Source of the DNA: a virus
Lineage: Duplodnaviria; Heunggongvirae; Uroviricota; Caudoviricetes
IMG/VR virus record: IMGVR_UViG_2721755643_000004
Length of the DNA: 45,530 nt
Reading direction: 5' to 3' (one strand)
Shown here: positions 9,731 through 19,762 of the stretch, in pieces
Layout: every line of letters begins with the position of its first letter
How positions within the stretch are numbered: the first letter of the stretch is position 1
Notes under the pieces: generated by a model
The model's input: only the letters and a program-made list of their open reading frames with translations
Told to the model about the DNA's origin: nothing
Database searches by the model: none
Made by a program: the position numbers and the translations under genes

Positions 9731-10444
9731 ATGGCAGTGAACACCGCAATTTTTAACGACAAAGTATCCATGACCAGCGTTGAAATCGCAGAGCTGGTTG
9801 GAAGTCAACACGGCAATGTCAGAATATCAATAGAGCGTCTGGCAAAACGCGGGGTGATTCAACTTCCTGCAATGCAAAAAGTTGAGAACGAACAATCATT
9901 TAGCCAAAACAAATTCACAAACGCATATATTTTCGAAGGCGAACAAGGCAAACGCGACAGCATCATTGTCGTCGCACAACTTTGCCCGGAATTCACTGCC
10001 CGCCTGGTAGATCGTTGGCGCGAACTGGAAGAGCAGGTGCGCAAACCAATGAGCGAAATCGAAATGGTTGCCGCGATGGCTCTTGAAGCCGTTCGTCAGC
10101 AAAAACGCCTCGACAAGATGGAAGAAAAAGTCAGTCACGTTACTGAAACTGTCGAACAAATCAAAAGAGGCACCATCCGCGATGGTTATGCAGGCTACCG
10201 TCAGCTGGTGGCGAAAACGGGTATGTCAGATGCGAAATGCCGCAATCTGGTGAACGCCTATCAAATTCCAACTGATACTCACGAATTTCTTACTCCGGAC
10301 GGATTGTTGTCACGCCGCACAATTGTTGCAGTGGAACCGTTTATGGCTGCTTTCCATCGTATGATGAGCGAAGCGGAACCGAGAGGAACTCGTTGGTATC
10401 ACCCGAAAATGGGGCTGTTCCAGGCGCTGGGCTGGCAGGGGTGA
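9731..10444 (+). CDS. Rha-type antirepressor (N-terminal Rha-like domain) with shared C-terminal domain (237 aa)
   Basis: Start MAVNTAIFND; C-terminus paralogous to ORF 2697..3446. Confidence 0.75.
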   Translation: MAVNTAIFNDKVSMTSVEIAELVGSQHGNVRISIERLAKRGVIQLPAMQKVENEQSFSQNKFTNAYIFEGEQGKRDSIIVVAQLCPEFTARLVDRWRELEEQVRKPMSEIEMVAAMALEAVRQQKRLDKMEEKVSHVTETVEQIKRGTIRDGYAGYRQLVAKTGMSDAKCRNLVNAYQIPTDTHEFLTPDGLLSRRTIVAVEPFMAAFHRMMSEAEPRGTRWYHPKMGLFQALGWQG

Positions 10445-10463
10445 CGATGTTTACGGGTAATTT

Positions 10464-10640
10464 ATGCAAGTCCTCAATCGCTGGTTCCGTGACGGAAGGG
10501 GGCGTCGTGTTCACGTTATACGCTGGGAGCCTGAAACACAGCGGGTTATTTATCTGCGTGATGGTTATCCATATGAATGTTTCAGCCCGTTGTGGTTGTT
10601 CAGGCGTGATTTTGTGGAGTGTGAAGCGCCGCCGGAATGA
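10464..10640 (+). CDS. hypothetical small Cys-containing protein (58 aa)
   Basis: Unlisted ORF MQVLNRWFRDGRGRRVHVIRWEPETQRV...; weak RBS. Confidence 0.35.
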   Translation: MQVLNRWFRDGRGRRVHVIRWEPETQRVIYLRDGYPYECFSPLWLFRRDFVECEAPPE

Positions 10641-10661
10641 CGGCACGGTATATACGAAAAA

Positions 10662-11021
10662 TTACGCCGCCTTGCCCAGCGTAAAATCAAAGTGGATGTC
10701 GTCATACGGGAATGACGTTCCGCGCTCGCTTTTTTCCAGTAAACCGTTGCTGATGAGTGCGGTCACGTCAGTATGCACGCTTTTTACATCACGTCCAACC
10801 AGGGCTGCAATTTTTCGGATGGACATTTCTCCGGCACCAGTCATTGCCATCAGAATGTCCATGCGTTTTGGTGTCAGTACCTTATGCATCATTTGCCAGT
10901 CAGGAAATGAAATAACGTTTTCTCTGGTTGCTTTTGCTCCGGTAGCTGCTTCCTGGAACGCAGACAGCACATCAGCCGTGAAATTATCCATTGACTCGAT
11001 TCGGATTGTTACGGTTCTCAT
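10662..11021 (-). CDS. HTH DNA-binding protein, putative antitoxin/regulator (119 aa)
   Basis: Start MRTVTIRIESM 1 nt after stop of upstream ORF; HTH-like MSIRKIAALVGRDVKSV. Confidence 0.55.
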   Translation of the reverse strand: MRTVTIRIESMDNFTADVLSAFQEAATGAKATRENVISFPDWQMMHKVLTPKRMDILMAMTGAGEMSIRKIAALVGRDVKSVHTDVTALISNGLLEKSERGTSFPYDDIHFDFTLGKAA

Positions 11022-11022
11022 G

Positions 11023-11310
11023 TCAGATACCTCTGCGGATGGATTTAACGTCAGCCAGAAAATCAGCGAGCAGTTGTTCAATGGTGACAAAGCTGGTGCT
11101 GACTTCCTGACTACCAATGTGTTTGTGATCGCCTTTACCCCGTTCGTTGTCGTAACGCATCACACACATGCCATCAACGACATAAGCCATGCTGTATTTG
11201 TAGTTGTGCTGGCTACCCAATACAGCAGGCTCCACTTCCCATATGCGGATTCGTATGTATTCAGATTCACCGAGATGACGGATGAACTGTTTATACAGTC
11301 TGGATGGCAT
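11023..11310 (-). CDS. putative toxin-like small protein (95 aa)
   Basis: RBS GAGGAA; tightly coupled to downstream HTH gene; family not recognised with confidence. Confidence 0.5.
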   Translation of the reverse strand: MPSRLYKQFIRHLGESEYIRIRIWEVEPAVLGSQHNYKYSMAYVVDGMCVMRYDNERGKGDHKHIGSQEVSTSFVTIEQLLADFLADVKSIRRGI

Positions 11311-11664
11311 TTAAAGCTTCCTCTGGTTCTTGTTGTAAACAATAACAACAAGGCTTCGCGTTGTCCACAGCTACAACATTTTGATATTGATTCTGCAAGT
11401 CCGGGACGTTACACTGTTCCGGCACCTTATAAAACGGGTGCCGGGATTTGCACCCCGGAATTGATCAAGGCGATATACGACGCGCCAGCGTCTTTTTTAT
11501 CGTCCACGCTCACGCACGCCAGAATTATGGTGGGCTGGGCAGGGGAGCCGAAAGGCTCGCCGGTTTCCTTGATCGCCGGTAGTGCAAACCCTGTTCAGTC
11601 CGCCACCAGCGAGATTTGCACCTCCGGTGGTGGAAGTATTTCACCGATCAAGGAGGCTGCCATT

Positions 11665-12396
11665 ATGGCTACGATCCCAGTTTCCCCATTCCTCAAAATC
11701 GAAGTCGTCAACGGTAAGGCCGTTACTACATCTCTTTTCGGATATCTCAAACTGTTGCGCCTTGCTGGTGTTCCGGGTTATATTTCTCGCGTTGCTGTAA
11801 ATCCAGCAACCGGGCTTCGCATCCCGAAACATCACACAGGGCTGACACGCCATAAGCGTGTTTTTTTGTCTACGCACGTCTATTCAATGGCGGCTCAGAT
11901 GGGAGCTTCTTCGGAAGCGCCGGTTTTCCCTTGTGTGTCCGGTAATGCGAATCCTGTCTGGGCTGCCACCAATCATGGTTTCGCATCCGTGGGTGGTAGC
12001 TGTAAAGCACACACACAAGGGGCTGTCACCATGACTACCACCACTACTCACCCATTCCTCAAAATCGAAGTCGTCAACGGCAAGGCCGTTATTTTCTCTT
12101 TGCATGTGGCCTGCCACTTTAAGCGCATGCACCAGAACATCGTCGACAAAATCGAGTATCTGAACTGCTCGCGCGAATTTTTTACCCGCAATTTCATACC
12201 GGGTACTTACCACATCTATGACGACTCTCTGCGTGGTTATTACATCACCCTTGATGGTCTGATGCTGCTTCAGCTTGGGTTAAGTCTGCGCACAATGCGG
12301 TACTACGAGAGTTGCATTGAAGCGTTCCATGAGGCTGAAACCAGCCTGAATCATACCGCTTTCCGTCGTAATCAATGGGAGGCGCGTCATGTGTAA
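11665..12396 (+). CDS. hypothetical protein (243 aa) with duplicated N-terminal motif PFLKIEVVNGKAV; may be two fused units
   Basis: ATG with AAGGAGG RBS; second in-frame ATG at 12031 with AAGGGG RBS; each preceded by a near-identical structured leader. Confidence 0.4.
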   Translation: MATIPVSPFLKIEVVNGKAVTTSLFGYLKLLRLAGVPGYISRVAVNPATGLRIPKHHTGLTRHKRVFLSTHVYSMAAQMGASSEAPVFPCVSGNANPVWAATNHGFASVGGSCKAHTQGAVTMTTTTTHPFLKIEVVNGKAVIFSLHVACHFKRMHQNIVDKIEYLNCSREFFTRNFIPGTYHIYDDSLRGYYITLDGLMLLQLGLSLRTMRYYESCIEAFHEAETSLNHTAFRRNQWEARHV

Positions 12397-12622
12397 TAAC
12401 CATTATTCAGATACCACTGTCACGGTAATTAAAAACCTGATGGATGCGCTTATTGACATCTCTGTTATTGCAGACAGGGTGCATAAGCACGCCGCCACTG
12501 AAACAGAATATACCGGGGCTCTCGTTCCTCATTCACTGACTGTCATGCAAATTAGCGCCGACCAGGCGCTGGAAACAGCCAGCAAAATGCTCATGGCTGA
12601 TGTGCAGGAGGTACGTCCATGA
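12389..12622 (+). CDS. hypothetical protein (77 aa)
   Basis: ORF, overlapping-stop/start chain. Confidence 0.5.
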   Translation: MCNNHYSDTTVTVIKNLMDALIDISVIADRVHKHAATETEYTGALVPHSLTVMQISADQALETASKMLMADVQEVRP

Positions 12623-19452: not shown

Positions 19453-19528
19453 GGCCCTTTAGCTCAGTGGTGAGAGCGAGCGACTCATAATCGCCAGGTC
19501 GCTGGTTCAAGTCCAGCAAGGGCCACCA
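19453..19528 (+). tRNA. tRNA-Ile2 (anticodon CAU, lysidine type; could be scored as Met)
   Basis: Cloverleaf with anticodon loop CUCAUAA; close to E. coli ileX by recollection; CCA encoded. Confidence 0.8.
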
Positions 19529-19529
19529 A

Positions 19530-19606
19530 CCACCACTAGCTCATCCGGATAGAGCATCAACCTTCTAAGTTGACGGTGCGAGGTTCGAGTCCTCGGTGGT
19601 GGGCCA
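19530..19606 (+). tRNA. tRNA-Arg (anticodon UCU)
   Basis: Acceptor CCACCAC/GTGGTGG; anticodon stem TCAAC/GTTGA, loop CTTCTAA; T-arm GGTTCGAGTCC. Confidence 0.8.
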
Positions 19607-19608
19607 GC

Positions 19609-19684
<76 letters not shown>

Positions 19685-19687
19685 TAT

Positions 19688-19762
<75 letters not shown>

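Follow-up and report, generated by a model that had tools for sequence, protein, structure and literature searches.

The 45,530-nucleotide viral record IMGVR_UViG_2721755643_000004 (hereafter the window, by which we mean the whole stretch of DNA analysed) derives from a phiP27-like lambdoid E. coli prophage and carries, between about 11385 and 12396 on its + strand, a repeated arrangement of RNA genes that leads into an open reading frame (ORF) for a Rha-like protein. In each repeat, or cassette, the order is promoter, IsrK-like RNA with two short sites (a1 and b1) and a terminator, C4 antisense RNA, two further short sites (a2 and b2), and ATG. Judged from its sequence, the window contains two complete cassettes of the type known from the immI operon of phage P1 and the isrK locus of Gifsy-1, placed in series and differing in specificity. 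The C4 RNAs, termed C4-1 and C4-2, have three stems (P1 to P3) and carry two antisense elements, a' and b'. The features of the two cassettes are as follows, SD denoting a Shine-Dalgarno sequence.

Cassette 1
11387..11415, + strand: predicted promoter-like site 1, with -35 hexamer TTGATT (11387-92), a 17-nt spacer and -10 hexamer TACACT (11410-15); predicted start at about 11422
11422..11498, + strand: IsrK-like RNA 1, Rfam isrK (RF01394), 63.4 bits (gathering score 50)
11447-53, + strand: a1, TTTGCAC, in a hairpin loop and complementary to a' of C4-1
11463-70, + strand: b1, GATCAAGG, complementary to b' of C4-1
11479-11498, + strand: intrinsic terminator 1, a terminator-like site (11479-92) followed by TTTTTT
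11529..11607, + strand: C4 antisense RNA 1 (C4-1), 79 nt, Rfam RF01695, 83.5 bits over 11523-11610 (gathering score 45)
11566-75, + strand: b' of C4-1, TCCTTGATCG, in the P3 loop
11582-88, + strand: a' of C4-1, GTGCAAA, in the linker
11615-11621, + strand: a2, TTTGCAC, perfect complement of a', placed after the C4 3' end as is the a2 of phage P1
11645-11654, + strand: b2, CGATCAAGGA, 10 nt, 100% complementary to b' and overlapping the SD AAGGAGG (11650-56); ATG at 11665
11665..11736, + strand: gene remnant (MATIPVSPFLKIEVVNGKAVTTSL...), about 24 codons, after which the frame runs without a stop through cassette 2 into ORF2

Cassette 2
11755..11784, + strand: predicted promoter-like site 2, with -35 hexamer TTGCGC (11755-60), an 18-nt spacer and -10 hexamer TATATT (11779-84); predicted start at about 11791
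11791..11866, + strand: IsrK-like RNA 2, Rfam isrK, 62.2 bits, the model beginning at 11791
11816-22, + strand: a1, TTCGCAT, complement of a' of C4-2
11833-41, + strand: b1, CACACAGGG, one base short of perfect
11844-11866, + strand: terminator 2, a terminator-like site (11844-62) followed by a T-run
11889..11970, + strand: C4 antisense RNA 2 (C4-2), 82 nt, Rfam C4, 74.2 bits over 11883-11973
11928-38, + strand: b' of C4-2, CCCTTGTGTGT, in the P3 loop
11945-51, + strand: a' of C4-2, ATGCGAA, in the linker
11980-11986, + strand: a2, TTCGCAT, perfect complement of a'
12011-12021, + strand: b2, ACACACAAGGG, 11 nt, 100% complementary to b' and overlapping the SD AAGGGG (12017-22); ATG at 12031
12031..12396, + strand: ORF2, the gene of cassette 2, 121 aa, protein with a Rha-like N-terminal domain

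A preliminary description of this stretch had singled out a 7-bp stem, GTGCAAA (11582-11588) with TTTGCAC (11615-11621) and ATGCGAA (11945-11951) with TTCGCAT (11980-11986), in two copies of a module of about 140 bp, 365 bp apart and in one frame. The four heptamers lie where they had been placed; a direct check of the letters showed that both differences between the copies are compensated in the partner arm, and a repeat search returned the arms of copy 1 as an inverted repeat of 13 nt with 85% complementarity. The second arm ends 44 nt (copy 1) and 45 nt (copy 2) before the ATG, as described, and the two ATGs, at 11665 and 12031, do share a frame, 366 nt or 122 codons apart. The period is 366 and not 365 bp, the shared coding segment forming a direct repeat at that spacing, and the repeated unit is not a 140-bp module but the whole cassette of about 366 bp (approximately 11385-11725 and 11750-12091), with 77% mean column identity.

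The same description knew of no described element to which the stem could belong, and had proposed a search of Rfam. A scan of the whole window, supplemented by a permissive scan for sub-threshold matches, matched both copies to known families, C4 (RF01695) and isrK (RF01394); the C4 matches are full-length (model positions 1-87 of 87) and far above the gathering score, and the 5' arm lies within them. Both copies also show the combination by which isrK is recognized, that is, a score of at least 50 bits, two 5' hairpins and a Rho-independent terminator. The C4 ends in the window were placed by alignment to c4 of phage P1 (48343-48419), whose GenBank record lists a1, b1, the c4 RNA (77 nt), a2 (7 nt, starting 4 nt after c4), b2 (8 nt), icd and ant, with b2 annotated as ending 10 nt before the icd ATG. 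Because phage P1 could be aligned with the window, the two arms can be equated with a' and a2, and the "stem" would be an antisense-target pairing: its 5' arm lies in the linker, left unpaired, that connects stem P3 with the 3' strand of stem P1, and its 3' arm lies 7-9 nt past the C4 3' end.

While a' and a2 match at 7/7 positions in both copies, a second and longer pairing in each copy, that of TCCTTGATCG with CGATCAAGGA and of CCCTTGTGTGT with ACACACAAGGG, had escaped the preliminary description. These are b' and b2, complementary at 10/10 and 11/11 positions, and b2 lies over the SD, 10 nt before the ATG. Each target heptamer occurs a third time, upstream (TTTGCAC at 11447, TTCGCAT at 11816). 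Since the upstream a1 and b1 sites repeat the targets inside the IsrK-like RNA, three sites covary for each of two elements: from one copy to the other a'/a2/a1 and b'/b2/b1 all shift together, and both b'/b2 and the upstream a1/b1 differ completely. The promoter hexamers of both cassettes fall in the same alignment columns as the mapped phage P1 promoter P1c4 (TTGACC...TATAGT), TTGAnn/TAnnnT hexamers occupy these columns in about 60 related modules, and the isrK model begins 7 nt beyond the end of the hexamers.

Related modules were collected with a pattern scan that yielded 54 IMG/VR loci and 15 loci from GTDB species (Photorhabdus, Pectobacterium, Rahnella, Mangrovibacter, Kosakonia, Izhakiella, a record titled Salinisphaera sp. 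and an Enterobacteriaceae isolate). The 39 unique modules among them contain 9 a' heptamers and 20 b' loops in 25 combinations. In an alignment-free comparison, an exact complement of a' was present within 25 nt of the C4 3' end in 36/39 cognate pairings as against 0/1274 non-cognate ones, in which a' was compared with the leaders of modules bearing another a'; a b2 match of at least 7 nt was present in 32/39 cognate cases versus 5.9% of non-cognate ones. The selection for RNA pairing suspected behind the compensatory changes is thus borne out, and the covariance analysis of homologues that had been suggested likewise found the pairing conserved and covarying across related modules. In 44 modules aligned by MAFFT (unfitted), C4 stems together with a'/a2 and b'/b2 were 93.1% paired, compared with 34-45% when partners were slid by 1-3 columns. 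Changes on both sides occurred at 30/44 pairs, including all 5 core a'/a2 pairs and 9/10 b'/b2 pairs, and the observed values were reached by 0/500 shuffles. Within the C4 RNA, stem P1 was 97.6% paired (9/17 pairs changed on both sides), stem P2 97.7% (5/5 pairs) and stem P3 100%. As MAFFT places the a2 of the cassette-2 type one column off, column-based counts understate the pairing, and the alignment-free test is therefore our primary evidence. At the predicted processing sites, all 44 modules have ATG at the 5' end and CACC at the 3' end, and the G and C next to these are conserved in at least 90%.

These comparisons bear directly on two readings of the arms in which pairing between RNAs plays no part. 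Seven-nucleotide inverted repeats are common (70 pairs in 1.2 kb), and the arms could in principle be a chance inverted repeat caught in a recent segmental duplication; yet copies that are 77% identical have both stem changes compensated, and the non-cognate, shuffle and slide controls refute this idea, to which we attach practically no weight. The preliminary description had also offered a palindromic binding site. The arms would then be a DNA operator for a phage repressor or another protein, and they are indeed inverted and close to the promoter-proximal region of an immunity locus; in phage P1 a C1 operator lies near the promoter of c4. The arms, however, are 26-28 bp apart, the a1 copy is oriented as a2, other parts of the structure contain G-U-type changes, and what the homologues conserve across at least nine unrelated heptamers is complementarity alone, not sequence; an operator is accordingly almost certainly not what the arms represent.

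A pseudoknot between CCACC and a GGTGG just 3' of the stem had been considered possible. The complementarity stood up, the region being paired in 92.6% of cells and covarying (one pair is C-G in 25 sequences versus U-A in 18), but it forms a hairpin with a2 in its loop. More specifically, the 3' strand of C4 stem P1 (CCGCCACC, TCACCACC, TCGCCACC, CTGCCACC or TCGTCACC) covaries with GGTGGTGG, GGTGGTGA, GGTGGCGA, GGTGGTAG or GGTGACGA, and this pairing constitutes an alternative hairpin that displays a2 in the loop. In the window it is formed by CCGCCACC (11600-07) and GGTGGTGG (11626-33) around the a2 of C4-1, and by CTGCCACC (11963-70) and GGTGGTAG (11992-99) around that of C4-2. It has been pointed out that the 3' half of the P1 stem may overlap another hairpin (Weinberg 2010 supplement). 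An extra helix, GAG/CTC (11612-14 with 11622-24), by which the a2 hairpin would be extended, was paired in only 41% of cells and was dropped.

Folding of whole precursors gave different predicted minimum free energy (MFE) structures for the two cassettes. In precursor 1, b' and a' are paired with b2 and a2 in cis and the SD is sequestered, while in precursor 2 a1 and b1 are paired with a' and b' and a2 sits in a hairpin loop; in this model the two MFE structures are the two alternative states described for IsrK (PMC4825925). The first of them, the covariation of CCACC with GGTGG and the place of cis pairing within the read-through transcript in the Gifsy-1 IsrK model (PMC4825925) would all suit the scheme of the preliminary description, a purely local leader hairpin or pseudoknot (a'-a2 stem plus CCACC-GGTGG) that works in cis and involves no diffusible antisense RNA. 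Several points speak against such a self-contained structure. The 5' arm is part of a conserved C4 RNA whose three stems (P1-P3) show covariation, an RNA that is processed and trans-acting in P1/P7; the target heptamer recurs as a1 in each copy and in the majority of homologues, for which a local hairpin has no need; folded locally, the region favors the CCGCCACC/GGUGGUGG hairpin, whose loop leaves a2 unpaired; and masking of the SD would fall to a second element, b'/b2. We consider an exclusively local structure improbable.

The canonical three-stem fold is the MFE structure of C4-1 (-48.5 kcal/mol) and, for C4-2, comes within 2.3 kcal/mol of it (-41.1 versus -43.4 kcal/mol). Whole-molecule RNAduplex energies of C4 with the leader were large and, as they ignore intramolecular structure, uninformative; duplexes were compared at the level of the elements instead. 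The b2 of cassette 1 (b2-1) forms a duplex of -20.5 kcal/mol with its own b' and of -7.2 kcal/mol with the other, and b2-2 one of -20.2 and -7.6 kcal/mol, respectively. For a' the cognate duplexes reach -8.6 and -8.7 kcal/mol and the cross duplexes -6.1 and -8.6 kcal/mol. The a' elements are only partly orthogonal because the inter-copy differences are transitions that allow G-U pairs, and orthogonality should therefore come mainly from b'.

Taken together, we favor, with a probability of about 88%, the interpretation that two autonomous immunity cassettes of the P1 immI/Gifsy-1 isrK/P4 CI type stand in series in the window, C4 silencing the downstream Rha-like gene. Each cassette would be transcribed from its own promoter. 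A short IsrK-like RNA would end at the intrinsic terminator and display a1 and b1, whereas read-through would give rise both to a tRNA-like C4 RNA of about 80 nt, presumably cut by RNase P between the AU and GG of a conserved AUGG and ending in CCACC, and to the leader with its gene. The linker element a' (7 nt) of this C4 would pair with a2, offered in the hairpin loop just 3' of C4, and the P3-loop element b' (10-11 nt) with b2 overlapping the SD, so that translation of the Rha-like, antirepressor-type gene would be blocked; by analogy with phage P1, this block may lead to premature transcription termination. The a1/b1 RNA would compete for C4 and relieve the block. The compensatory differences between the copies would then be specificity determinants that match each C4 to its own cassette, with most of the discrimination residing in b'/b2.

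This scheme is modelled on better-known systems, the phage P1 part resting on the P1 GenBank annotation and on secondary sources. In P1 and P7, c4 is cut from the operon transcript by RNase P and acts in trans; b' partly occludes the ribosome-binding site, a' gives specificity, and the two phages are set apart by a 4-nt difference with matching changes in the target (PMC5320573). The a'/a2 interaction has been described for both (Weinberg 2010 supplement; PMC5320573), a1/b1 have been proposed as competitors of a2/b2 (Weinberg 2010 supplement), and further literature on the mechanism is available (PMC8201110). In Gifsy-1, the read-through transcript adopts an inactive fold that the short IsrK RNA converts into an active one, and a stable processed RNA, STnc1160, is found downstream (PMC4825925).

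The annotation of these sequences tells a different story. The Prokaryotic Genome Annotation Pipeline (PGAP) places an "ash family protein" over both RNA modules, at 11275-11625 (pseudo) and 11752-12396, and the translation of 11275-12393 scores 86.3 bits (cutoff 26) against Pfam PF10554 Phage_ASH, the best match being aa 46-137, or nt 11410-11685. These Ash calls coincide with the isrK/C4 modules, at about 11410-11685 and 11778-12030 of the window. The frame of the ATG is open through the module in 52/65 unique modules (window 11422-11665 and 11791-12031 and our loci L003-L072), the other two frames in 0/65 and 10/65. A conserved AUG at the C4 5' end (11527, 11887) lies in this frame, which is closed in phage P1. 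All this might mean that the region is the N-terminal "Ash" domain of an Ash-Rha protein and that the covariation is a by-product of coding, a view with which it would also agree that within the E. coli subset indels are in multiples of three and that in Gifsy-1 a translated 45-codon ORF spans the C4-like RNA, its translation being needed for coupling (PMC4825925). The module, however, has no codon periodicity (entropy 0.60/0.65/0.61 by codon position versus 0.14/0.14/0.43 in the ORF downstream of the ATG, 26 modules), the annotated start at 11752 is upstream of the predicted transcription start of cassette 2, and coding constraint does not produce covariation at 30 base pairs.

In P4 (L073, 8330-8521, - strand), PF10554 matches an obsolete "cI protein" coding sequence overlapping a C4 match at 8420-8507, which we take to be the CI RNA gene, and the true P4 epsilon protein belongs to PF25738. 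A survey of P4 satellites took PF10554 as an epsilon marker (PMC8628076), although in our comparison the family does not match epsilon. An Ash protein domain at this locus is a very unlikely explanation, and the open frame may reflect translation without a conserved peptide, after the manner of the orf45 coupling in Gifsy-1.

ORF2 has the clear codon periodicity given above, and it matches PHROG 995, "transcriptional regulator" (6e-56). It scores 29.2 bits against Pfam Phage_pRha (cutoff 29.9) and 41.4 bits against TIGR02681 (cutoff 45.95); its homologues are annotated as putative antirepressors or transcriptional regulators, and a sequence search against solved structures gave no match at E<=1. 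In both cassettes the conserved codons for VNGKAV (12076-12100, + strand, and also 11710-11724) form a hairpin, AACGGCAAGGCCGTT, followed in ORF2 by ATTTTCTCTT and scored as terminator-like. This hairpin could act in attenuation, folding only while the ORF goes untranslated, or could be due to chance.

Several observations weigh against the view that two C4 immunity cassettes control the downstream gene. The c4-a1b1 model (RF03163, gathering score 46.7) reaches 46.5 bits for copy 2 (11778-11830) and a weak 19.8 bits for copy 1; a1 matches a' at 7/7 positions in both copies, b1 matches b' at 8/10 and 9/11 positions with one bulge, and the overlapping isrK model exceeds its gathering score in both. 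A strict sigma-70 scan reported no promoter on the + strand, because the sites agree with the consensus at only 8/12 positions. Discrimination by a' is weak in one direction, a'2 on a2-1 giving the same -8.6 kcal/mol as the cognate duplex. The match of ORF2 to the Rha domain is only near threshold, and its antirepressor role is putative. The open frame in 52/65 modules is not accounted for by a pure-RNA model. Finally, although the family assignment, the complementarities, the covariation across homologues and the array architecture are observed here, the processing, repression and promoter roles are carried over from P1, P7, P4 and Gifsy-1 and may differ at this locus.

The serial arrangement is not peculiar to the window. 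A profile search of the fetched loci detected 2-3 C4 genes on one strand within 1 kb in 24/69 loci (23/54 from IMG/VR and 1/15 from GTDB), a frequency that applies to a pattern-selected sample of related prophage loci. The periods are approximately 656 bp (a cassette plus a 120-aa Rha-like ORF), approximately 478 bp, or 362-368 bp, as exemplified by L052 (C4 genes at 5203, 5859 and 6516) and L046 (6795, 7157 and 7817). No two cassettes of an array share a' or b', and each has its own cognate a2 and b2, except at the Pectobacterium locus. Some second cassettes (L013, L017, L022 and L024), which adjoin ORFs of 55-70 aa, carry a' CTGTCAA, the heptamer of phage P1 c4; this match hints at a specificity shared between unrelated phage types. 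We came across no paper on such C4 cassette arrays.

The arrangement of the window corresponds to the 362-368 bp class, in which cassette 2 (ATGCGAA/CCCTTGTGTGT) always follows a gene remnant of about 24 codons. The truncated remnant is present in the window and in 7 IMG/VR loci, always with 366 nt from ATG to ATG, while the upstream cassette shows four different specificities; the remnant, cassette 2 and ORF2 therefore move as one unit, and the cassettes upstream of it are exchanged. The exchange point is likely the near-identical segment encoding PFLKIEVVNGKAV, already noticed in the preliminary description. In related arrays, the same N-terminus as that of the cassette-1 remnant begins Rha-like ORFs of 120 aa or 183-187 aa: in cassette 1 the body of the gene has been lost, and the remainder continues in frame into cassette 2. 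As a speculation that we consider rather unlikely, heterospecific arrays may provide immunity through a combinatorial "barcode" of a' and b'. Gene-less cassettes such as cassette 1 would then be kept as trans silencers of antirepressor-type genes of co-resident or incoming phages, or as a second lock in series on ORF2, conceivable because translation of ORF1 would run in frame through cassette 2; the open frame would reflect a required translation through C4, as in Gifsy-1 orf45, and not a protein product.

Positions 11400-12400 of the window are 100% identical to E. coli CFSAN029787 (NZ_CP011416) and three further genomes. The exact tandem (at least 80% of it) occurs in only 10/5426 complete E. 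coli genomes, and single-cassette relatives in about 480; the phages closest to the locus are phiP27 and Shiga toxin (Stx)-converting phages. The genes around the cassettes are, in order, a LexA-family repressor, a Rha-family regulator, an opposite-strand TumE-type toxin-antitoxin pair, the cassettes themselves, small ORFs, replication genes and the Q antiterminator. The pair of TumE-family toxin and transcriptional regulator (10662-11310, - strand) lies immediately upstream of cassette 1, and a promoter-like site (11339-11367, - strand) is directed away from that cassette. A 667-aa ORF on the + strand (10393-12396) was rejected as a gene, its 5' half being antisense to the toxin-antitoxin genes and its middle consisting of the RNA modules. 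Elsewhere in the prophage is a cluster of four tRNAs (19453-19762, + strand), for Met(cat), Arg(tct), Thr(tgt) and Gly(tcc).

This type of regulatory RNA has been known since 1990, and our finding opens no new field. It does show that E. coli prophages of the phiP27/Stx type carry 2-3 differently keyed C4 cassettes before Rha-like, antirepressor-type genes, and such arrays bear on the question whether and how Shiga-toxin prophages in one host respond to one another's induction signals. The two-element code, with at least 9 a' and at least 20 b' variants and their cognate targets, could serve as a source of orthogonal translational repressors. Genome annotation, through the PGAP "ash family protein" and Pfam PF10554, treats the RNA module as protein.

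The closest precedent is the immI operon of P1 and P7 (c4, icd, ant), reportedly the work of Citron and Schuster in 1990. Both share with the window the order of promoter, a1, b1, C4, a2, b2 and ATG; three stems in an RNA that begins with GG after AU and ends in CCACC; an a' of 7 nt in the linker, a b' in the P3 loop and a b2 over the ribosome-binding site; and a specificity set by a few compensated bases, as between P1 and P7. They differ in that the window represents a lambdoid phiP27/Stx-like prophage and not a P1 plasmid prophage, that a 121-aa Rha-like protein would be controlled instead of icd-ant, that b'/b2 span 10-11 nt as opposed to 8 in phage P1, that an intrinsic terminator follows a1/b1, as in isrK, and that two cassettes stand in series, the first without a gene body. 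Moreover, the frame is open through the RNA here, whereas in phage P1 it closes 9 nt upstream of the script-picked ATG (7 nt downstream of the annotated icd start).

Like isrK-orf45/STnc1160-anrP of Gifsy-1 (Hershko-Shalev 2016, PMC4825925), each cassette has an IsrK-like RNA with a terminator; read-through would yield a stable RNA by processing and reach an antirepressor-like gene, alternative predicted cis folds sequester or free the ribosome-binding site, and the short RNA is complementary to the downstream RNA. In Gifsy-1, which is described as a single cassette, the 45-codon ORF ends before anrP and acts by translational coupling; the equivalent frame here (AUG 11527, 11887) runs on without a stop, in the phase of the main ATG. 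The P4 immunity region (seqA, CI RNA, seqC) scores 74.9 bits with Rfam C4 on the presumed CI region and 60.8 bits with isrK upstream, and there too the RNA cut from the leader binds sites on either side of itself by pairing, but the described outcome is premature transcription termination of the replication operon (PMC4825925), not SD masking of an antirepressor-type gene. The Group 1 C4-like small RNAs of Acinetobacter baumannii (PMC5320573) resemble our set in that there are many C4-fold RNAs per genome, with variable a'/b' and processing at GGW; they are dispersed chromosomal copies whose targets are not known, whereas here the copies are tandem and the cognate targets adjacent. The kind of element is thus already familiar from P1/P7 c4, P4 CI and Gifsy-1 IsrK, to which we add, modestly, two specificity variants, a little-described tandem heterospecific arrangement with a gene-less first cassette, and an a'/b' code at the scale of a survey.

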